Shown: piece by piece, positions 8,867 to 44,465 of the stretch | Position numbering within the stretch: position 1 is the stretch's first letter | Layout: every line of letters begins with the position of its first letter | Assembly: GCF_056746865.1 (NCBI RefSeq) | Contig: NZ_CM163382.1 | DNA: 64,000 bases | Reading direction: 5' to 3' (one strand) | Notes under the pieces: model-generated | Database searches by the model: none | Told to the model about the DNA's origin: nothing | What the model saw: only the letters and a program-made list of their open reading frames with translations | Position numbers and translations under genes: made by a program

Positions 8867-9778
8867 ATGATGAGCGAAAGTAATAAGCAACAGGCAGTGA
8901 ATAAGTTGACGGAGATTGTCGCTAACTTTACCGCCATGATTTCTACCCGAATGCCCGATGACGTGGTGGACAAACTAAAACAGCTAAAGGATGCCGAAAC
9001 GTCGTCGATGGGGAAAATCATCTACCACACGATGTTCGACAACATGCAAAAAGCGATCGACCTGAATCGCCCAGCCTGTCAGGACACCGGCGAAATCATG
9101 TTTTTCGTTAAAGTCGGTTCCCGTTTCCCGCTGCTTGGCGAGCTGCAAAGCATTCTTAAGCAAGCCGTGGAAGAAGCAACCGTCAAAGCGCCACTGCGCC
9201 ACAACGCGGTGGAAATTTTTGACGAAGTGAACACCGGCAAAAATACCGGCAGCGGCGTACCGTGGGTCACCTGGGATATCGTCCCCGACGGTGACGATGC
9301 GGAAATCGAAGTTTACATGGCAGGCGGCGGCTGCACGTTGCCTGGTCGTTCGAAAGTGTTAATGCCGTCGGAAGGCTACGAAGGCGTGGTGAAATTCGTC
9401 TTCGAAAATATCTCCACCCTCGCCGTAAACGCCTGTCCACCGGTACTGGTAGGCGTGGGCATCGCCACCTCGGTGGAAACCGCCGCTATGCTCTCACGTA
9501 AAGCCATTTTGCGCCCAATTGGCAGCCGCCACCCCAATCCGAAAGCGGCAGAGCTGGAGCTACGCTTGGAAGAAGGACTCAACCGTCTGGGGATTGGTCC
9601 ACAAGGGCTGACTGGCAACAGTTCAGTGATGGGCGTGCATATCGAATCTGCCGCTCGCCATCCGTCAACCATCGGCGTTGCTGTTTCTACAGGCTGCTGG
9701 GCGCATCGTCGCGGCACACTGCTGGTTCATGCCGATCTCTCCTTTGAAAATCTGTCTCACACCCGGAGCGCGTTATGA
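8867..9778 (+). CDS. ttdA: L(+)-tartrate dehydratase alpha subunit
   Basis: 303 aa; Fe-S hydro-lyase alpha family; stop overlaps ttdB start (ATGA). Confidence 0.9.
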
Positions 9779-10380
9779 AAAAGATCCTGACAACCCCGAT
9801 CAAAGCTGAAGATCTGCAAGATATTCGCGTCGGCGATGTGATCTACCTGACCGGTACGCTGGTGACCTGCCGTGACGTTTGTCACCGCCGCTTGATCGAA
9901 CTGAAACGTCCGATCCCTTACGATCTCAACGGCAAAGCGATTTTCCACGCTGGCCCCATCGTGCGCAAAAACGGCGACAAATGGGAGATGGTATCCGTCG
10001 GCCCGACAACCAGTATGCGTATGGAAAGTTTTGAACGTGAATTTATCGAACAGACCGGCGTGAAACTGGTGGTCGGCAAAGGCGGAATGGGGCCGCTGAC
10101 CGAAGAAGGCTGCCAGAAATTCAAGGCGCTACATGTGATTTTCCCGGCAGGCTGCGCAGTACTGGCGGCAACCCAGGTGGAAGAGATTGAAGAAGTGCAC
10201 TGGACAGAACTCGGGATGCCGGAGTCACTGTGGGTCTGCCGGGTCAAAGAGTTCGGCCCGCTGATTGTCTCTATTGATACCCACGGCAACAACCTGATAG
10301 CCGAAAACAAAAAGCTGTTCGCCGAACGCCGCGATCCCATCGTGGAAGAGATTTGCGAGCACGTCCACTACATCAAATAA
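9775..10380 (+). CDS. ttdB: L(+)-tartrate dehydratase beta subunit
   Basis: 201 aa; translationally coupled to ttdA. Confidence 0.9.
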
Positions 10381-22903: not shown

Positions 22904-23175
22904 GATTTATTCCTTATGAATGAGTTAGCGGTGTAAATGAAAAAGCCGCGTCTCCCGGAGAAGACGCGGCCTGATGGACGAAATGAATGACGTTTATTGT
23001 CTGAGAAGCCCTTCACTGGCGAGCTGCGTATTTTTATGGAAGGAGATCACCCAATAACCCCATCGGGATCGGGCAATAACCGGCCAAATTGTGAACGATT
23101 CAGATGCCATTTGGCAGCAAAAGAGCCTTCGGCAATAAACGTGATGTACAACCCGGCATATCTGTTGCTCCCTGA

Positions 23176-23207
23176 AAGTAAAAAGCCCCGGTCATTATGA
23201 CCGGGGC
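23176..23207 (-). terminator. Intrinsic terminator after flu (agn43)
   Basis: Minus-strand hairpin gccccggtca/tgaccggggc (loop taa) followed by U-run (plus-strand aaaaa at 23180-23184), 20 nt after the flu stop. Confidence 0.5.
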
Positions 23208-23229
23208 CTGAAGGGGAGTGACCTGATTA

Positions 23230-26076
23230 TCAGAAAGTCACATTCAGCGTGGCCTGACCGTTATAGCCTTCAGCGCTGTTGCCGCTGACACTGTGGGCAT
23301 AACCGGCCTGAACGCCCAGAGTGATATTTTCCCGGACACGGGCTTCCAGTCCGGCCTGCAGGTCCAGTGACGTGCCATTCTGTGACGGTGAGAACGTCAT
23401 GTTACTGCCGGCTTCAGCTGTACCCATGCTCATGTCACCCCGGGAGCTGAAAGTGCGGATAACAGAAGGCTGTACCCACCAGTTCACCGGCAGTTCACTC
23501 ACACGGTGTTTTGTACTGTCGCGCAGAGTGTCACGGGATGAGGTGCCTTCGCCAAAGGTCATATCGTTGTGGCTGCCCAGACGGAAGCCGGCACGCACAT
23601 GTTGTGTACTGCCATGCCCGAACTTCACATAACCGGCGTTATCCTGGCCGTCATCCAGGGAGAGCCCCTGCCAGGTGTACTGCAGTTGTGGCTCCAGCAT
23701 CAGGTTGTCAGTGATACTGAAGGGCAGACCGGTTTCCAGTGAGCCCAGCCAGCCCCAGCCCCGGGCGCGGAAGTCGTTATTGTCCGATGACGCTTTCATG
23801 CTGTGGCGGGTTCCCTGTGCCACAATGTCAGCCCACAGGCCGGAGGACGTGTGTGTCAGATTCAGGTATCCGCCCAGGCTGCCGGCATCATCCCGGACTG
23901 TGCCGGCGCGGGAACCGTCATCATCCTTAACATCAACGGAAGAATGACCTGCAGCACCATACACCCCTGTCGTCAGAGACATACCTGCAACCTCTGTTCT
24001 CAGCAGGTCACCCTCCAGACGGACGAAGCCATAGCTGCCGCTGCTTTCCGGCGTGGCTCCACGGGCAATACCGCCGTTGTTATCGTGACCGAGATGACCG
24101 CCCTGAATGCTGAGACGGACGCTGTTATTTTCACCGTTTACACCGGTCTGATGGCTGCGGGAGCCTGCCAGAATCCGGTCATAGTCCATTGCCTGTGTCA
24201 GCATGGAGGCATACAGGGGGACTTCAGCACGATAAGCATTTTCACTGCGCAGGTACCAGTCTTCATCGCTGTCACGGTTCAGGGTGTAGTTAAAGGCACC
24301 GGCCTGAAGCGGGCGACTCAGGGCAAACGCACCTTCTTCTGTGGTGGCACCATTCTGTGCATCCACAACCCGGATACCCTGTCCGGAGGTTGCCACCCCG
24401 AGGTTACTGTTTCCGACATTTGTGAACGCAAGCCAGGTTTTGCCGGTTGCCTGACCACCATTAATCACCAGCTGGTCAGAGGCATTGCTGCCATCAAGGC
24501 GAACACGCATATTGATGGTGCCACCCTGACCGGTGAGGTTACTGGTTGTCAGTTTATGGAACGTTACCGGGGCGTTGCCTTTTGCAACAGCACGGCTCAG
24601 TATGGCATCCGGTGTTGTCTGATTGTCAAAGTAAATCTCCCCTGCGTTAACAATATCGCCGGTACTGACCACATCACCATTCAGTACCATGCTGGCGCCT
24701 TTACTGAGCTGTGTTCTGCCACTCAGACTTCCCCCGGCAGCCAGCATCAGTGTTCCACGATGTCCGACAGTGGTGTTGCCAGCCTGTCCCCCGGCATTAA
24801 CCGTAAAGCTGCCGCCATTTTCCAGCAGCAGGCCGCTGGCCTGACCGGATATGCCATCAATACTGAACTTACCGCTGGCATTGGTCCCCTCAACAGTGGC
24901 ACCACTGTCTGCAATCAGGGCACCACCGGATGTCATGGTGACACCTGTCGCCTTACCACCGGCAGACACTGCCAGGGTTCCGCCGTCATCCACCCGTGTT
25001 TTCTGCGCTGAATGGCCCTCCAGTACATCCAGGCGACCGCCGGACTCCAGAACAACACCGTCAGCCTTACCGTTTTCCACCGTGAAATTCCCCAGACGGT
25101 TGCTGCCGGTGACGGTTGCCGCCGTACTGGTGACCAGTGCGCCGCCCTGCTTCAGGGTGACATTCGTGGCTGTACCACCGGCGTTCACCTGCAGTTTGCC
25201 TTTCTGGTTAACGGTGGAGAAATCCGCCAGACCACCTTCCTTGATAATCTGCCAGCCGTCACTGTTTACAACAGTGCCAGACGCCGTACCGCCGTTGTGC
25301 ACATACTGGTACCCCCCATTCAGCGTGGTATCCAGTGCGTGACCATGTACAGTCTGGTCGCCGCCGGCATAAACCACAGTGGTATTTGCCGTTCCTTCAG
25401 CAGCCACAATCTGACGACCATTTTTATTGATGGTGGTGCGTACGGCATCTCCGTAGACGGTCTGCCCGGTATCACCATTTTCTGCATCCGGTCCCCCTTC
25501 CGCGCCGGTATTCACAACCGTGTCGGTTGCCATTGCGCCGGATTTGACGGCCTGCCAGCCCTTCTCATTAATGACGGTACCCGTTGCAATCCCGCCTTCA
25601 TGTATCCACTGCTCACCGCCGTTCAGAGTGGTGTTCACTGCCTGCCCCTGAAGGCTCTGTCCGCCTCCGGCACTGATAACCGTGTCTGAAACGCTTCCTC
25701 CGGCATTCACTCTCTGAAGACCACCACCGGTGACAGTAGTGTTGTTGGCGGTACCGCCATTTTGTATCCATTGGCCGCCGGTATTCGCCTCGTTATCCGG
25801 CCCATACTCCAGCCCGGTACTGATGGTCATTCCGTTGGCCGTACCGAAGACAATCTGGTTGTCATGATTTGTCAGTGTTCCGCCGCTCACGGTTTCTCCC
25901 GCCTGTACGACCGTGTCAGCAGCCAGTACCGGGACTGACGTGACAGCAGCAAGAGACAGCGCAACCGCCACACCGGTGCGTTTTCCCCGTGAGCGCGCCA
26001 GTTCGGAAGCCACCACCAGGGTGCCCGTAATGTGATTCCATACCAGCCTGTAGCTGGTGTTCAGATGTCGTTTCAT
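23230..26076 (-). CDS. flu: Antigen 43 self-associating autotransporter adhesin
   Basis: 948 aa from Met MKRHLNTSYRLVWNH... (26th codon of the track ORF); long signal peptide, repetitive passenger domain, C-terminal beta-barrel ending NVTF. Confidence 0.88.
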   Translation of the reverse strand: MKRHLNTSYRLVWNHITGTLVVASELARSRGKRTGVAVALSLAAVTSVPVLAADTVVQAGETVSGGTLTNHDNQIVFGTANGMTISTGLEYGPDNEANTGGQWIQNGGTANNTTVTGGGLQRVNAGGSVSDTVISAGGGQSLQGQAVNTTLNGGEQWIHEGGIATGTVINEKGWQAVKSGAMATDTVVNTGAEGGPDAENGDTGQTVYGDAVRTTINKNGRQIVAAEGTANTTVVYAGGDQTVHGHALDTTLNGGYQYVHNGGTASGTVVNSDGWQIIKEGGLADFSTVNQKGKLQVNAGGTATNVTLKQGGALVTSTAATVTGSNRLGNFTVENGKADGVVLESGGRLDVLEGHSAQKTRVDDGGTLAVSAGGKATGVTMTSGGALIADSGATVEGTNASGKFSIDGISGQASGLLLENGGSFTVNAGGQAGNTTVGHRGTLMLAAGGSLSGRTQLSKGASMVLNGDVVSTGDIVNAGEIYFDNQTTPDAILSRAVAKGNAPVTFHKLTTSNLTGQGGTINMRVRLDGSNASDQLVINGGQATGKTWLAFTNVGNSNLGVATSGQGIRVVDAQNGATTEEGAFALSRPLQAGAFNYTLNRDSDEDWYLRSENAYRAEVPLYASMLTQAMDYDRILAGSRSHQTGVNGENNSVRLSIQGGHLGHDNNGGIARGATPESSGSYGFVRLEGDLLRTEVAGMSLTTGVYGAAGHSSVDVKDDDGSRAGTVRDDAGSLGGYLNLTHTSSGLWADIVAQGTRHSMKASSDNNDFRARGWGWLGSLETGLPFSITDNLMLEPQLQYTWQGLSLDDGQDNAGYVKFGHGSTQHVRAGFRLGSHNDMTFGEGTSSRDTLRDSTKHRVSELPVNWWVQPSVIRTFSSRGDMSMGTAEAGSNMTFSPSQNGTSLDLQAGLEARVRENITLGVQAGYAHSVSGNSAEGYNGQATLNVTF

Positions 26077-26293
26077 CAGCTTTTCCTTACAGAGGGTGAA
26101 TAAAAAAGCCGGTACCCACAAATGTGGATACCGGCAGGTACAAAACAGCATGGTCAGATAAAGTGGTTTTTCCCGGACATAAATGCTTCCCCTCTCTCAT
26201 CCGCCAGAGAAGTATCAGTCCGTTGTGTGCAATTCCGTTCTGCATGATGAAGAGATTCAACTGCCTTTTCGCAGGCCATTAACCACTATAAAC

Positions 26294-26329
26294 GATCGAT
26301 AGTAACGATCGATACCTGTTTTATTGATC
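26294..26329 (-). promoter_or_regulatory. agn43 phase-variation switch region (three Dam GATC sites, presumed OxyR operator)
   Basis: GATC at 26294-26297, 26307-26310 and 26326-26329 within 36 bp, about 220-250 bp upstream of the flu ATG. Confidence 0.65.
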
Positions 26330-26448
26330 GTTTTATTCTATTGATTGCAAGGCGGTCACGCAAGAGAAACAGGAGGATCATGAGGTGTTTGTGTCATGTT
26401 TTCAGTTGGTTAACGCAATGTAATCAGGCATTTCCCCTGGCAGACTGT

Positions 26449-27321
26449 TCAGAAGAAAATCCAGTTCCATACAGCGCGGGCAACAGAGACCACCGAGTCA
26501 CGGACGGCACGCAGAACCGTGCGTGCAACAGAGGCAATACAGACGCTCTCCGCCGTGTCAAATATCCGGTCCACCGCACCGGTAAACTGTTCACGGGCCT
26601 GAGACCGGACAGATTCCGTGCGCAGCTCGTCCTGCAGGCGGGTCATCAGGGGACTGGCGGCATGGTCGGGAAGCGCTGTCATGAGCGCACTGACCAGCGT
26701 ATCCAGTTCCCAGCCGGTGCAGGCCGATACGGCCACAACCGGATGTACGGGTCGGAACAGCCGGAATACCGCATCTGTTTTCTCACGAATGTTCTGTGCC
26801 TGTGCGGGAGAAGGCTGAATGCCGGCCATATCCCATTCATGGCAGGGCTCCGTTTTGTCGGCCTGCGTCACCACAAACAGTACCCGCTGATGTCCCCGGT
26901 GCAGGATGTGTCGCCAGAAATACTCATCCACAGACAGGGCACGGTCATCGGCTTTAATCAGCCACAGTACCAGGTCAAGTTCAGGCAGAATGTTACGGTA
27001 CAGGGCTTCATACTCTGCATCCCTGTCCCGGCTCTCGCCCACCCCGGGCAGGTCAGTGATAATCATGCTGTGACCGTGGCCACTCAGACGGAAGCGCTGC
27101 ACTTCCCGGGTGCCGGCGTGAACATCACTGACCGGTGTGACTTCCCCCTGAAACAGCGCATTACAGAGTGAGGATTTACCGGCCCCGCTTTTACCCATAA
27201 TGCCAATCACGGGTTCGTGGCTGGTGAGTTTACGCAGATGTTCCAGGATGTGACGGGAAAGCGAATAAGGCAGGGAGGAGAGCGGTTTTTCAATTGCCTC
27301 AATGGCATCAGACGGATTCAT
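26449..27321 (-). CDS. YeeP/YfjP/YkfA-family GTPase
   Basis: P-loop GIMGKSGAGKSS and DxxG (TDLPGVGE); start taken at MNPSDAIEAI (14th codon of the track ORF). Confidence 0.75.
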   Translation of the reverse strand: MNPSDAIEAIEKPLSSLPYSLSRHILEHLRKLTSHEPVIGIMGKSGAGKSSLCNALFQGEVTPVSDVHAGTREVQRFRLSGHGHSMIITDLPGVGESRDRDAEYEALYRNILPELDLVLWLIKADDRALSVDEYFWRHILHRGHQRVLFVVTQADKTEPCHEWDMAGIQPSPAQAQNIREKTDAVFRLFRPVHPVVAVSACTGWELDTLVSALMTALPDHAASPLMTRLQDELRTESVRSQAREQFTGAVDRIFDTAESVCIASVARTVLRAVRDSVVSVARAVWNWIFF

Positions 27322-27584
27322 ATATGTATTCCCGGTGAAAAAAGACAAAACCCCGCGCACCGGAAAGGTGGCGGGGGATTCACGGAGATAATATCTGTCT
27401 GAAATTATTTAGAATGCACCTGGTGCACTGCAAAGGAAAGGCAGTATTCCGTTCCTCCTCCTTGTCGTGAATACCCCAGGTATCTCACAATGTACACCGA
27501 CTTACTCCGGGGCTGCCTGAACCACAAGATTGCTGTAGAATTGCCCCCAATGATTCAGGTCCAAACCAGGCAAATGGATTAAAA

Positions 27585-29141
27585 ATGACAAGTATTCAAC
27601 AACGAGCAGAACTGCACCGCCAGATATGGCAAATTGCCAATGATGTCAGAGGTTCTGTTGACGGATGGGATTTTAAGCAATACGTTCTGGGCGCACTTTT
27701 CTACCGTTTTATCAGCGAAAATTTTTCCAGTTATATTGAAGCCGGTGATGACAGTATCTGTTATGCGAAACTGGATGACAGCGTAATTACTGATGACATT
27801 AAAGACGATGCCATCAAAACTAAAGGCTACTTCATCTACCCCAGTCAGCTTTTCTGCAACGTAGCGGCGAAAGCAAATACTAATGACAGGCTGAATGCAG
27901 ATTTAAACAGCATCTTCGTTGCTATCGAAAGTTCTGCTTACGGTTATCCTTCAGAAGCTGACATCAAAGGTTTGTTTGCTGATTTCGATACCACCAGTAA
28001 CCGCCTGGGTAACACCGTTAAGGATAAAAATGCCCGCCTGGCTGCGGTTCTGAAAGGGGTTGAAGGGTTAAAACTTGGTGACTTCAACGAACATCAGATT
28101 GACCTGTTCGGTGATGCCTATGAGTTCCTGATTTCTAACTATGCGGCAAATGCCGGTAAGTCAGGCGGTGAGTTCTTTACACCGCAGCACGTCTCCAGGC
28201 TGATTGCACAACTGGCTATGCACGGGCAGACCAGCGTTAACAAAATCTACGACCCGGCAGCGGGTTCCGGCTCACTGTTGTTGCAGGCGAAAAAACAGTT
28301 TGATAACCACATCATCGAAGAAGGCTTTTTCGGTCAGGAAATCAACCATACGACCTATAACCTGGCGCGTATGAACATGTTTTTGCACAACATCAACTAC
28401 GACAAGTTTGATATCAAGCTGGGTAATACACTGACTGAGCCACACTTCAGAGATGAAAAACCGTTTGATGCCATCGTTTCTAACCCGCCGTATTCGGTGA
28501 AATGGATTGGCAGCGATGACCCGACGCTGATTAACGATGAACGTTTTGCCCCGGCTGGCGTTCTGGCCCCCAAATCAAAAGCTGACTTCGCCTTTGTACT
28601 ACATGCGCTGAACTATCTTTCTGCCAAAGGTCGCGCCGCGATTGTCTGCTTCCCGGGTATTTTTTACCGTGGCGGCGCGGAGCAGAAAATCCGTCAGTAT
28701 CTGGTCGATAATAACTATGTCGAAACCGTGATTTCACTGGCACCGAACCTGTTCTTTGGCACCACCATTGCCGTCAATATTCTGGTGCTGTCTAAACATA
28801 AAACGGATACCAAAGTTCAGTTTATTGACGCCAGCGAACTGTTCAAAAAAGAGACTAATAACAACATCCTGACCGATGCTCATATCGAACAGATTATGCA
28901 GGTATTTGCCGGCAAGGAAGATGTTGCTCATCTGGCGAAATCTGTCACGTTTGAGACTGTTGTCGCGAATGACTATAACCTGTCGGTGAGCAGCTATGTG
29001 GAAGCGAAAGATAACCGCGAAGTGGTGGACATTGCTCAGCTCAACGCCGAGCTGAAATCTACTGTCGCCAGGATTGACCAGCTTCGCAGGGATATTGATG
29101 CCATCGTCGCTGAAATTGAAGGCGAGGAGCAGGAGGCATGA
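27585..29141 (+). CDS. hsdM: Type I restriction-modification system, N6-adenine DNA methyltransferase subunit
   Basis: 518 aa; AdoMet motif [10 protein letters not shown] and catalytic NPPY ([11 protein letters not shown]); N-terminal HsdM domain. Confidence 0.92.
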
Positions 29142-30343
29142 GTAGCGTGAACTTCTTGGAAAAGCTGTTGGATGGCGTTGAGGTCGAGTGGAAGACACTT
29201 GGGCAAACTTGCAAAATTGAAACAGGAAAGCTTAATGCGAATGCGGCTGTTGATGATGGAGAGTATATGTTCTTCACGACAGCCAAAGAGACAAGCAAAA
29301 TTGATAAATTCCGCTGGGATACAGAGGCATTGCTGATTGCAGGCAATGCGAATGTTGGTGAGGTGAAGCATTACATCGGCAAGTTTGAGGCTTATCAGCG
29401 CACCTATGTTCTGACAAATTTCGACGAAAATGTAAGTGTTAGATTTTTGTATTTTGTGCTTAGCCATAGCCTGAAGAAATATCTCGAGGAAAGAACAAAT
29501 AGCGCGGCAATGACATATATCGTGCTATCAACCTTAGAGAATTTCCCTATCCCCATCCCCTGCCCAGGCAACCCCCAAAAATCCCTTGCCATCCAGTCTG
29601 AAATCGTTCGGATTCTGGATAAATTTACTGCACTTACCGCTGAGCTTACCGCTGAGCTTAACATGCGTAAAAAACAGTACAACTACTATCGCGACCAGTT
29701 GTTGAGTTTTAAAGAGGGTGAGGTTGAGTGGAAGACTTTGGGGGAAATTGGAGATTTTACATATGGATATGCAGCCAAAGCCATGGATTCAGGAGATGCC
29801 CGTTTCGTGAGAATTACTGACATAAATAAAGACGGGAAGCTATCGAAAGAAAACCCAATGTACGTTGAATTAAATGAGGAAAATGAGAAATATACCTTAG
29901 ACAAAAATGATTTACTCATGGCAAGAACTGGGGCAACCTTTGGTAAAACAATGATTTTTGAAGAAGATTATCCAGCAGTATACGCTGGTTTTTTAATAAA
30001 GTTGAACCTAAATAAAACGATTATTAATGCCAAATATTACTGGCACTTTGCACAAAGTGATTTTTTTTGGGAACAGGCTAATAAATTAGTATCTGGTGGT
30101 GGGCAACCACAGTTTAATGCTAATGCACTGAAACAAGTCAGAGTACCTATTCCATACCCATCTCACCCTCAAAAATCTTTAGACGAACAGGGGCGTATTG
30201 TGGATATTCTGGATAAGTTTGATGCAATCGCAGCTTCCATCACCGAAGGTCTCCCGCGTGAAATCGAGTTACGTCAAAAACAATACGAATACTATCGTGA
30301 TTTACTGCTCAGTTTCCCAAAACCTGAAACTGTCAGTAAATAA
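29138..30343 (+). CDS. hsdS: Type I R-M specificity subunit (type IC architecture)
   Basis: 401 aa; ATG overlaps hsdM stop; two variable recognition domains separated by a conserved central region with TAELTAEL and conserved distal region ([24 protein letters not shown]). Confidence 0.9.
29633..29656 (+). repeat. 12-bp tandem repeat cttaccgctgag x2 in hsdS (TAEL x2)
   Basis: Two perfect tandem copies plus a 4-nt partial third (ctta), read directly; encodes LTAELTAEL in the HsdS central spacer. Confidence 0.9.
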
Positions 30344-30464
30344 TTGACCATTGCTACCGACCGGGCCTCCTTAACATCCGGTCAGTATATAGACTATTTT
30401 TTACGCGCCGGAAGTCACTCTTAACGCCCTTCCGGCTCTTGCCAGGCGGCACAAAGGATGCGCT

Positions 30465-33400
30465 ATGACTCATCAAACACACACCATTGCTGAATCCAAT
30501 AACTTTATCGTCCTTGATAAGTACATCAAAGCTGAGCAAACAAGCGACAGCTACCAGAGCGAATCGGACCTGGAACGTGAACTGATTCAGGACCTGCGGA
30601 ATCAGGGTTATGAATTTATTTCCGTAAAATCACAGTCGGCAATGCTGTCTAATGTTCGGGAACAGCTTCAGAGCCTCAATGGTGTGATGTTTAATGACAG
30701 CGAGTGGCGGCGCTTCACGGAGCAGTATCTGGACAACCCCAGCGATGGTATTCTGGATAAAACCCGTAAAATCCATATCGACTATATCTGCGACTTTATT
30801 TTTGACGACGGGCGACTTGAGAACATCTATTTGATAGATAAAAAGAATCTCATGCGCAATAAGGTGCAGATTATCCAGCAGTTTGAACAGACGGGTTCTC
30901 ATGCTAACCGTTATGACGTCACGATCCTGGTTAATGGTTTACCGCTGGTGCAAATCGAACTAAAAAAACGCGGGGTGGCGATTCGTGAGGCTTTCAACCA
31001 GATACATCGTTACAGTAAAGAGAGTTTTAACAGCGAAAATTCCCTGTTTAAGTATCTGCAACTGTTTGTCATTTCTAACGGCACCGATACCCGTTATTTT
31101 GCCAACACGACAAAGCGCGATAAAAACAGTTTTGACTTCACCATGAATTGGGCGAAATCAGACAACACGCTGATTAAAGACCTCAAAGACTTTACCGCTA
31201 CCTTTTTCCAGAAACATACTCTGCTGAATGTTCTGGTGAACTACAGCGTTTTTGACAGTAGTCAGACGCTACTGGTGATGCGACCGTACCAGATTGCCGC
31301 CACCGAGCGCATTCTGTGGAAAATTAAGAGTTCCTTTACAGCGAAGAACTGGTCAAAACCGGAAAGCGGTGGGTATATCTGGCACACTACCGGTTCTGGT
31401 AAAACCCTCACCAGCTTTAAAGCCGCGCGTCTGGCAACAGAGCTGGACTTTATTGATAAAGTCTTCTTTGTGGTCGACAGGAAAGACCTCGATTACCAGA
31501 CCATGAAGGAATATCAGCGTTTTTCGCCAGACAGCGTCAACGGCTCGGAAAATACCGCAGGCCTTAAACGAAATCTGGATAAGGACGATAACAAAATTAT
31601 CGTCACTACTATTCAGAAACTCAATAACCTGATGAAAGCAGAAAGCGACCTGCCTGTATATAATCAGCAAGTGGTGTTTATATTTGATGAATGCCACCGC
31701 AGCCAGTTTGGAGAAGCGCAGAAAAACCTGAAGAAGAAATTCAAACGCTATTATCAGTTTGGTTTTACCGGCACCCCTATTTTCCCGGAAAACGCCTTAG
31801 GCTCAGAAACAACCGCCAGCGTATTTGGCCGTGAATTGCATTCGTATGTGATTACCGATGCGATTCGTGACGAAAAAGTGCTCAAATTCAAGGTGGACTA
31901 CAACGATGTGCGGCCACAGTTTAAGTCTTTAGAGACAGAAACTGACGAGAAAAAACTGAGTGCGGCTGAAAATCAGCAGGCGTTTCTTCACCCCATGCGT
32001 ATTCAGGAAATCACGCAATATATCCTGAATAATTTCCGCCAGAAAACCCACCGTACTTTCCCTGGTTCCAAAGGTTTTAATGCCATGCTGGCAGTAAGCA
32101 GCGTGGATGCTGCAAAAGCCTATTATGCGACGTTTAAACGGTTACAAGAGGAAGCCGCTAATAAATCTGTAACTTATAAACCGCTGCGTGTTGCGACAAT
32201 CTTCTCCTTTGCCGCTAATGAAGAACAAAATGCCATTGGTGAAATTTCCGATGAAACTTTTGATACCAGCGCAATGGACAGCAGTGCTAAAGAGTTTCTT
32301 GACGCTGCAATTCGTGAGTATAACAGCTATTTTAAAACTAACTTCAGCACCGACGGTAACGGTTTTCAGAACTACTATCGTGATTTAGCCCAACGGGTTA
32401 AAAATCAGGATATCGATCTGTTAATTGTCGTGGGAATGTTTTTAACCGGCTTCGATGCTCCAACATTAAACACGCTATTCGTCGATAAAAACTTGCGTTT
32501 TCACGGCCTGATGCAGGCATTCTCCCGCACCAACCGCATTTATGACGCGACTAAAACCTTCGGTAATATTGTCACGTTCCGGGATCTGGAACGCTCAACC
32601 ATTGATGCCATAACGCTGTTTGGTGATAAAAATACCAAAAATGTGGTTTTAGAAAAGAGTTATGCAGAGTATATGGAAGGCTTTACTGATGCTGCCACTG
32701 GTGAAGCTAAACGCGGCTTCATGACAGTAGTTTCAGAACTGGAACAACGGTTCCCTGACCCTACCAGTATTGAAAGTGAAAAAGAGAAGAAAGACTTCGT
32801 TAAACTGTTTGGCGAATACCTGCGTGCCGAGAATATCCTGCAAAACTATGATGAATTTGCCACGCTAAAAGCCCTGCAACAAATCGATCTTAGCGATCCT
32901 GTTGCGGTAGAAAAATTCAAAGCAGAACATTATGTGGATGATGAAAAGTTCGCTGAATTGCAAACAATTCGTCTCCCTGCTGATCGCAAGATTCAGGATT
33001 ATCGTTCTGCCTATAACGATATTCGCGACTGGCAGCGCCGTGAGAAAGAAGCTGAGAAAAAAGAGAAATCAACCACTGACTGGGATGACGTAGTTTTTGA
33101 GGTCGATTTGCTGAAGTCTCAGGAAATAAACCTGGATTATATCCTTGGACTGATTTTCGAACACAACAGACAAAATAAAGGCAAGGGCGAAATGATCGAA
33201 GAGGTCAAACGCTTAATTCGTTCAAGCCTGGGGAACCGTGCTAAAGAGGGCCTGGTGGTCGATTTTATTCAGCAAACGAACCTGGATGATTTACCGGACA
33301 AAGCCAGCATCATTGACGCATTCTTTACGTTTGCTCAACGCGAACAGCAACGTGAAGCAGAAGCCTTGATCAAAGAAGAAAATCTCAATGAAGAGGCGGC

Positions 33401-33581
33401 GAAACGCTATATTCGCACATCTTTAAAACGCGAATACGCCACCGAAAATGGCACGGAATTAAACGAGACACTGCCCAGACTCAGTCCTTTAAATCCGCAA
33501 TATAAAACGAAAAAACAGACTGTTTTTCAAAAAATTAGCGCATTTATTGAAAAATTTAAGGGGGTGGGTGGAAAGATTTAG
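30465..33581 (+). CDS. hsdR: Type I R-M restriction endonuclease/helicase subunit
   Basis: 1038 aa; helicase motif I (TGSGKT) and DEAD-like box ([12 protein letters not shown]); length and sequence recall EcoR124I HsdR. Confidence 0.92.
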
Positions 33582-33731
33582 GGAAGGTGCGAATAAGCAG
33601 GTCATTTCTTCCCAAGCTGACTCGCTGATTAAAATTTCGCGGATCTGGGCCGATTTTTTTCCCGCAAACACATCGAATCGGCCTGTTTAGGCTATTTTTT
33701 CCACCATTTCTGGCGTTATTTCCGGTTTTTA

Positions 33732-36015
<2,284 letters not shown>

Positions 36016-36184
36016 TCAGGAACTTGTTCGCACCTTCCCTAAAAAAAGCAGATGATTTTCATTATTATCGCAGGATAATTGTGCGCATATTTTCCATGCG
36101 GATAAGAATACTTATTCATGGAAATAATAATTTCCAGGTCATCAAGTGAAATCTGTTAACGCAAAGAGTGTTCCACCCTGCCCC

Positions 36185-41301: not shown

Positions 41302-41413
41302 GTGAGATTTGGTGCTTAGCACAAATATAAATATTTGTGATCATTATCAAAATGTAAATGATAACGCATCTTTATTATCATTTGAGATTAAATATCACGC
41401 AGCGTTAATCTAA

Positions 41414-43870
<2,457 letters not shown>

Positions 43871-44465
43871 CAAGAGAACGCAACAGCGCACTTGCTTTGC
43901 CACAGTTGAATTTTGTGCCGTAACGATGTGCAAGCATGTAAGCATAAGGAGTCAAGGTATAGCGTGTTACTTAGTTACTCGGATTAACAATCCCAACGTA
44001 CAGAGCGGCGGATTTAGAGAGTCAGCGCAGTCCCTGCTCCGGCAGTCAGTGGCAGGCGGCGTACTGAAGCAAACCATTATCGATACCGGCATCGGCGATA
44101 CCATCGGCATGCTGATGTCACACGGCAATATTTCTCCCTACATCATGGCGTGGTTGATAACCGTGCTGATCCGTCTGGCAACGGGTCAGGGCGTGGTCTC
44201 AGCCATGACGGCGGCGGGGATTATTAGCGCAGCAATCCTCGACCCGGCAACCGGTCAACTGGTGGGCGTCGACCCGGCGTTGCTGGTGCTGGCAACAGCG
44301 GCTGGCTCCAACACGCTGACCCATATCAACGATGCTTCGTTCTGGCTGTTCAAAGGCTACTTTGATCTGTCGGTGAAGGATACGCTGAAAACCTGGGGTC
44401 TGCTGGAGCTGGTAAACTCCGTGGTTGGCCTGATAATCGTGTTGATCATCAGCATGATTGCATAA
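43871..44465 (+). pseudogene. GntP-family permease, C-terminal fragment truncated by IS5
   Basis: The 303-aa track ORF starts inside IS5; only the distal ~198 codons look like a gluconate-type permease C-terminus. Confidence 0.6.

Follow-up and report, generated by a model that had tools for sequence, protein, structure and literature searches.

Whether a short cluster of GATC sites in front of an adhesin gene is a functional Dam/OxyR phase-variation switch, and how far it departs from the agn43 (flu) switch of Escherichia coli K-12, is the question raised by the locus described here, which lies in a stretch of 64,000 nucleotides (contig NZ_CM163382.1 of RefSeq assembly GCF_056746865.1; "the window" denotes this whole stretch). 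The earlier note on this DNA had reported three GATC sites within 36 bp, and both the positions and the span were exact: the sites occupy 26294-26297, 26307-26310, and 26326-26329, with start-to-start distances of 13 and 19 bp and a span of 36 bp. The same note treated such clustering as the hallmark of the antigen 43 switch, a claim that stands only in part. GATC triples within 36 bp occur 7 times in the window, against 1.1 +/- 1.1 in mononucleotide shuffles, most of the others being intragenic, so that the cluster by itself proves little; what does bear out the hallmark is the exact 19/13 arrangement, which occurs once in the window, the intergenic setting directly after a conserved -10 hexamer, and the homology to K-12. 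On either side, the switch cluster adjoins a GATC-free gap (3227 and 4547 bp), these two being the longest in the window. Elsewhere in the window, 8 GATC sites are packed into 192 bp (9734-9925), including two of the seven triples; judging by colinearity with E. coli CFSAN061769, this group lies inside coding sequence around the ttdA/ttdB junction.

On the strength of its sequence, the locus is very probably a Dam/OxyR epigenetic phase-variation switch of an antigen 43 (Ag43) family adhesin gene on the minus strand, and the finding is a further allele of an already known, thoroughly characterized system. The switch reading proposed earlier is supported by the joint presence of the promoter, the GATC spacing, the OxyR half-sites, a gene of the NF033177 family, and an IS102/IsrC leader. 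The regulated gene (23230..26076, minus strand) is intact and encodes an Ag43/Cah family autotransporter adhesin of 948 aa that matches the NCBIfam equivalog NF033177 auto_Ag43 over positions 1-948 of 948 with 1983 bits (cut-off 1200). In amino acid identity the protein is closer to the Cah protein of E. coli O157 (88%) than to K-12 Ag43 (71%); the name agn43 (flu) used earlier is thus right at the level of the gene family, but the gene, a member of the 948-aa class, is not K-12 flu itself. Upstream, in the same orientation, is a yeeP-like GTPase family gene (26449..27321, minus strand), a constant neighbor of the switch that was present in all alleles fetched, and the 372-bp intergenic gap between the GTPase and adhesin genes houses the switch.

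Read on the minus strand, the regulatory region starts with the -35 hexamer TTGCGT (26358..26363), which aligns with TTGTCC of K-12, is weak (3/6), and was assigned by homology; it is followed by a 17-bp promoter spacer (26357..26341), the -10 hexamer TAGAAT (26335..26340), which is identical in K-12, and the linker AAAAC (26334..26330), also the same in K-12. GATC-I (26326..26329), the promoter-proximal Dam site, comes next, approximately at the transcription start and in the same position after TAGAAT-AAAAC as in K-12; after a gap of 15 bp there follows GATC-II (26307..26310), 19 bp after GATC-I, and after a further 9 bp GATC-III (26294..26297), 13 bp after GATC-II. A generic consensus promoter scan of 25900-26600 called no promoter because of the weak -35 hexamer, and the promoter was assigned by homology instead. 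The sigma-70 promoter assigned in this way lies directly upstream, with the operator overlapping the -10 hexamer and the start site, the latter placed from the start of the Rfam leader model and from 5'RACE on another allele. The earlier note had located the GATCs upstream of agn43, which is correct, but they stand at the very start of the transcribed leader and overlap the promoter and start site. Alignment with the agn43 regulatory region of K-12, which the note had proposed as a check, yielded a position-for-position homologous operator with the same promoter layout.

The predicted OxyR operator (26295..26341, minus strand) consists of half-site 1, ATAGAATAAAACGAT (26341..26327), a 17-bp spacer, and half-site 2, ATCGTTACTATCGAT (26309..26295). 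Sites were scored against the 10-position half-site ATAGnTnnnAnCTAT, arranged as ATAGnTnnnAnCTAT-N17-ATAGnTnnnAnCTAT with a maximum of 20; this form of the half-site consensus is reportedly that of Toledano et al. 1994. Both predicted half-sites score 8/10, their centres are 32 bp apart, and the resulting 16/20 at 26341..26295 is the single top score of the 64-kb window, the next being 13. The same N17 register gives 16/20 in 12 of 13 E. coli alleles, K-12 included; among shuffled windows, 1 in 20 also reached 16/20 somewhere. In the literature, the OxyR half-site is a 10-nt consensus, and a centre-to-centre distance of 32 bp is canonical for reduced OxyR (PMC4856963); the consensus is printed with an apparent typo in PMC2909390. 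The N17 register also agrees with the half-sites of Salmonella gtr (PMC2909390). The earlier note had named a lack of OxyR half-sites around the GATCs as the result that would speak against a switch, and in silico two such half-sites, of 8/10 each and 16/20 together, are present. A contracted N7 register with a 22-bp offset proved non-discriminating, with 10/20 in the window, 14/20 in K-12, and chance sites elsewhere that reach 14/20, and the N17 register was used in its place for that reason.

The half-sites and the Dam sites are interlocked. Half-site 1 covers the -10 hexamer and ends in GATC-I, whose CGAT forms its 3' recognition element; half-site 2 is bounded by GATC-II, which supplies its 5' recognition element (ATCG), and by GATC-III, which supplies its 3' recognition element (CGAT), so that three of the four OxyR recognition elements contain a GATC. 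Among 36 distinct metagenomic operators, position 10 (A) of half-site 2 is invariant even though it was free in the search pattern, and the -10 TAGAAT, a hexamer outside the search pattern, is invariant except for one TAGAAC. Between K-12 and the window, 7 of the 17 positions of the inter-half-site spacer differ and none of the half-site consensus positions does; within half-site 2, only positions 7 and 8, both unconstrained, differ. Where K-12 has a CTAT element ahead of GATC-II, the window has AACA, and if OxyR binding at agn43 needs CTAT, the window operator class would be expected to bind more weakly. The register that OxyR would occupy in vivo is taken here from consensus matching and from the gtr and opvAB systems.

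Comparison across alleles separates what is conserved from what drifts. The 19/13 GATC geometry is kept in 13 of 14 other E. coli alleles examined; in the remaining one, which precedes a frameshifted gene, GATC-I and GATC-II are one base further apart. Since the 17-bp promoter spacer varies freely between alleles, recent common ancestry alone does not account for the conserved operator. The operators fall into two classes: a K-12-like class with a ..CTATTT.. spacer and GATAAGC or GTTATGC after GATC-III, and a window-type class with the spacer GATAAAACAGGTATC and GTTTATAG after GATC-III, to which most distinct leaders (56 of 72) belong. E. coli CFSAN061769 shares the 401-bp regulatory region at 100% identity, and its downstream gene is likewise annotated Ag43/Cah. 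Of 5426 complete E. coli genomes, 3445 contain a match to at least 80% of this region, invariably flanked by genes annotated "GTPase family protein" and "Ag43/Cah family autotransporter adhesin."

Set against its best-studied relative, the window locus shares with K-12 agn43 the -10 TAGAAT, the AAAAC-GATC-N15-GATC-N9-GATC string, two OxyR half-sites (16/20), the IS102/IsrC leader with its terminator, the upstream yeeP-like GTPase gene, and the family of the regulated gene. It differs at 7 of the 17 positions of the inter-half-site spacer, in what follows GATC-III, in a leader that is about 30 nt longer, in the -35 hexamer (TTGCGT versus TTGTCC), in an extra GATC at -50, and in the 948-aa protein class; K-12 agn43 also resides in the CP4-44 prophage, whereas the window locus is in a tRNA-Ile island beside a type I restriction-modification (R-M) system. 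Closer still are cah of E. coli O157:H7 and other Ag43/Cah alleles of 948-950 aa, which have the GATAAAACAGGTATC spacer, GTTTATAG after GATC-III, the same leader length class, and 88-97% protein identity; from these cah-type alleles the window differs only in single bases, namely A for G after GATC-I, variants in the promoter spacer, and the extra upstream GATC.

The behavior of K-12 and uropathogenic E. coli (UPEC) alleles is documented in detail. At agn43, three GATCs overlap the OxyR site; OxyR represses transcription and shields these GATCs from Dam, and their methylation keeps OxyR from binding. The two states are heritable, with switching at ~1e-3 per generation (1e-2 to 1e-3 in one report); mutation of dam locks the gene OFF, mutation of oxyR locks it ON, and expression is partial when both are mutated (sources for all of these include PMC2909390 and PMC3764049). 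In UPEC strain EC958, an oxyR mutation raises agn43 transcription 121-fold (PMC4807369). Regulation by OxyR does not depend on its oxidation state (PMC4856963). In the methylome papers, Ag43 is mentioned as background only. The anatomy of the window locus agrees in full with the mechanism described for agn43, and by extension from this literature, OxyR binding, its methylation sensitivity, and heritable ON/OFF expression would hold for the window allele as well. The sigma-70 promoter (-35 at 26363..26358, -10 at 26340..26335) would start the ~250-nt leader at about 26329-26333, and an OxyR tetramer in reduced-type geometry would bind the two half-sites 32 bp apart (26341..26295), covering the -10 hexamer, the start site, and all three GATCs. 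In the OFF state, bound OxyR would block initiation and shield the GATCs from Dam, leaving them unmethylated; in the ON state, Dam would methylate the GATCs first after replication, such that OxyR could not bind and transcription would proceed. Each state would reproduce itself through replication, with flips at ~1e-3 per cell per generation. Both trans-acting genes, dam and oxyR, are absent from the 64-kb window. They are core genes in E. coli.

The switch finding itself brings no new biology: the system is a textbook case of bacterial epigenetic inheritance that sets the fraction of a clonal population making Ag43, an adhesin that drives aggregation and biofilm formation. It does mean that Ag43/Cah expression in this strain is expected to vary from cell to cell, which matters for phenotype and transcriptome work on single colonies (PMC3764049).

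A different reading of the same inheritance is that the switch has been altered in the window allele and is biased or locked rather than balanced. We consider this unlikely. The candidate causes are the inter-half-site spacer AAAACAGG in place of ATCTATTT, A in place of G after GATC-I, and the extra GATC at -50, changes that could shift OxyR affinity or Dam kinetics, and the N7-register score, 14/20 in K-12, drops to 10/20 in the window. The extra site (26376..26379, strand unassigned) is 13 bp upstream of the -35 hexamer, outside the canonical switch, and this fourth GATC was found in 1 of 95 distinct regulatory regions, that of the window allele; the site reads CATGATCC in the window allele and CATACCCC in the other alleles. 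The 96-bp operator region is also rare, with 2 of 3868 E. coli records at least 99% identical, and precedents exist for tuning, as OxyR affinity and GATC number adjust switching (PMC2909390) and half-site quality sets the bias of opvAB (PMC4856963). Against an altered switch, neither the two 8/10 half-sites nor the three GATCs are disrupted in the 32-bp register; most distinct leaders carry the window-type spacer, which is conserved before intact genes, a pattern that argues for function; and the A after GATC-I is also the state of K-12. The only UPEC allele checked, agn43b of CFT073, belongs to the K-12-like operator class, which leaves a small chance that the window-type operator has a different switching bias.

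The reading of the locus as an inherited Dam/OxyR switch of the agn43 type can also be placed among related systems. The Salmonella gtr clusters (P22, LT2) carry GATC pairs 13 bp apart in OxyR half-sites, each pair 64 bp from the next (PMC2909390), and share with the window these 13-bp pairs within half-sites, the reduced-OxyR spacing, and the abolition of OxyR binding by methylation (PMC2909390). They differ in having three half-sites and four GATCs upstream of the promoter, as opposed to the single repressor site over the promoter of agn43 (PMC2909390), and OxyR acts there as activator or repressor depending on which pair is occupied (PMC2909390). Salmonella opvAB likewise has half-sites 32 bp apart that overlap GATCs, and its control is independent of the OxyR oxidation state; it differs in its four half-sites and four GATCs upstream of the -35, in the role of OxyR as activator, and in the contributions of SeqA and HU (PMC4856963). 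Alternative sites of the gtr/opvAB type were not found, since only two half-sites of at least 8/10 occur in the 32-bp register and these overlap the promoter; a third half-site downstream (register 26309..26273) scores 4/10. The Dam/Lrp systems pap, sfa, and foc also generate heritable methylation patterns through competition between Dam and a DNA-binding regulator, but they use Lrp with a PapI-like cofactor and two GATCs 102 bp apart in two alternative sets of binding sites (PMC2909390).

The transcript begins, at the operator, with a recognizable RNA. The agn43 leader, corresponding to IS102/IsrC (Rfam RF00124), extends on the minus strand from the operator to the leader terminator (26095..26331), with a score of 74 bits (gathering score 46) over model positions 1-206 of 206; the leader is ~250 nt long, and the three GATCs make up its first ~35 nt. 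GATC-I lies 253 nt from the ATG in the window, 222 nt in K-12, and 224 nt in CFT073 agn43b, and 5'RACE in UPEC strain EC958 placed the start 228 nt upstream of the agn43 ATG (PMC4807369), which fits a start at GATC-I, or slightly ahead of it, in leaders of that class. An intrinsic-terminator-like hairpin with a T tract (26098..26135, minus strand; hairpin 26135..26108, with a 12-bp stem including 8 G-C pairs) lies ~20 nt upstream of the Shine-Dalgarno sequence. It is nearly identical in K-12, in contrast to the middle of the leader, which differs, and it is found in 54 of 56 window-type leaders. Premature termination in the agn43 leader was reportedly described by Wallecha in 2014, and the conserved terminator probably adds a second layer of control of this kind. 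The window leader also contains an 8-codon ORF (MSGKNHFI; 26154-26180, minus strand) with a purine-rich stretch upstream, which ends 19 nt before the terminator stem; most window-type leaders contain this ORF, but K-12-type leaders lack it, and it was therefore rejected as a general feature of the leader.

The leader also bears on the possibility that the palindrome formed by GATC-II and GATC-III is conserved mainly as RNA, that is, as the 5' hairpin of the IS102/IsrC leader with a role in stability or termination, Dam and OxyR being secondary. The Rfam IS102 consensus does pair the CGAUCG...CGAUCG segment, and the minimum free energy fold of the leader contains the same hairpin. Such a hairpin needs neither GATC tetranucleotides nor a fixed 19/13 spacing, however; GATC-I and the half-site at the -10 fall outside it, yet are equally conserved; and the DNA-level mechanism is experimentally established (sources including PMC2909390 and PMC3764049). 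Both roles can coexist. We regard a primarily RNA-level function as highly improbable. That the cluster arose by chance and has no regulatory role, a reading favored only by the 7 triples in the window, is next to impossible and already refuted by the comparative data, given the position-for-position homology to the K-12 operator, the retention of the cluster across alleles 71-100% identical in protein while the promoter spacer varies, its coincidence with the best OxyR site of the window, and its isolation in a tract otherwise without GATC.

That isolation, around what we take to be an ordinary Dam/OxyR switch, may be the only element of the locus with some potential beyond the known system. 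The Ag43 gene contains no GATC in the window (2847 bp) and none in K-12 (3120 bp), whereas synonymous-codon shuffles lead one to expect 6.1 +/- 1.9 and 8.7 +/- 2.1 sites, respectively, with zero reached in 0 of 500 shuffles. The yeeP-like GTPase gene of the window is equally devoid of GATC, as are six other Ag43/Cah alleles together with the GTPase gene upstream of each, and no GATC occurs in 65 of the 79 distinct metagenomic Ag43 genes that are complete. Across 120 metagenomic loci, GATC density is 0.09-0.29/kb at -1000 to -1 and 0-0.47/kb at +250 to +3000, against 1.3-9 GATC/kb in the flanks, with a sharp rise beyond about -1250 and +3000. In simulations of neutral synonymous drift at the level separating the window and K-12 genes, ~3.2-3.6 GATCs were created, and the probability of zero was 0.025-0.04. 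Among the controls, yeeR, iroN, and the plasmid-borne AIDA-I gene, taken as same-island controls, are not depleted; one plasmid autotransporter gene and the usher gene of CFT073 foc are.

The foc (F1C fimbrial; foc/sfa) operon of CFT073 offers a parallel. It has a pap-type regulatory GATC pair 102 bp apart and, like the agn43 module, a transcription unit that is GATC-free outside its regulatory sites: the operon has 5 GATCs against 26 expected; 4 of the 5 belong to the regulatory region, beyond which come 8.0 kb without a GATC, and the neighboring iro genes have normal GATC density. We put forward, tentatively and at well below even odds, that the scarcity of GATC over ~4.3 kb (the GTPase gene, the rest of the leader, and the Ag43 gene) is a selected, functional part of Dam-dependent phase-variation modules. 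A tract of this kind would leave no hemimethylated GATCs nearby to draw Dam and SeqA, and competition at the operator would be restricted to OxyR and Dam; if true, this role would extend to Dam/Lrp fimbrial operons such as foc.

A general poverty of GATC in mobile elements is a viable alternative, because the window island as a whole is GATC-poor, with 4 GATCs against 29.8 expected over 23071-30922, hsdM and hsdS included. In EC958, stretches of 1 kb or more without GATC are enriched in mobile elements, and a GATC-free region is likewise reported for hsdS in K-12 (PMC4659465); on account of that report, GATC-free regions as such are already known. In the literature collection searched, nothing tied GATC-free tracts to Dam-dependent switches, which is not proof of novelty. 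Should a selected role for the tract hold, GATC-free units behind isolated GATC clusters could guide genome scans for new Dam-dependent switches, and the tract could inform the design of portable epigenetic switches.

The genomic setting is that of a variable island. The window is E. coli DNA and, apart from a different hsdS segment and an insertion of ~9 kb, is colinear with CFSAN061769, the main aligned blocks sharing 98.6-99.9% identity. The island adjoins tRNA-Ile, mug, and rpoD, and the GTPase-agn43 module within it is surrounded by the type I R-M genes upstream and by DUF932, antirestriction, JAB, and CbtA/YeeU genes downstream. The R-M system is complete (hsdM, hsdS, and hsdR; 27585-33581, plus strand) and divergent from the module; hsdM and hsdS contain 0 GATC. 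A different specificity subunit is suggested by the hsdS segment at ~29202-30236, which fails to align with CFSAN061769. Further along, 33576-36039 and 41408-43871 are direct copies of 2464 bp, 99.6% identical, carrying IS5-family and IS3-family transposases, and they flank ~5.4 kb that encode a DMSO/selenate-reductase-family A subunit and neighboring genes. Since this duplicated-IS segment is absent from the otherwise colinear CFSAN061769, it looks like a composite-transposon-like insertion.

Neither the leader nor the operator had a match in the phage collection, and the evidence from outside E. coli amounts to one Salmonella and one Klebsiella plasmid record. The latter, the conjugative IncFIB/IncFII plasmid ps01 of Klebsiella pneumoniae (NZ_CP094480.1, 136673-140765), carries the GTPase-switch-cah module in its entirety, its operator being of the window type and its 19/13 GATC spacing preserved, and the presence of the module there indicates that the module moves between genera.
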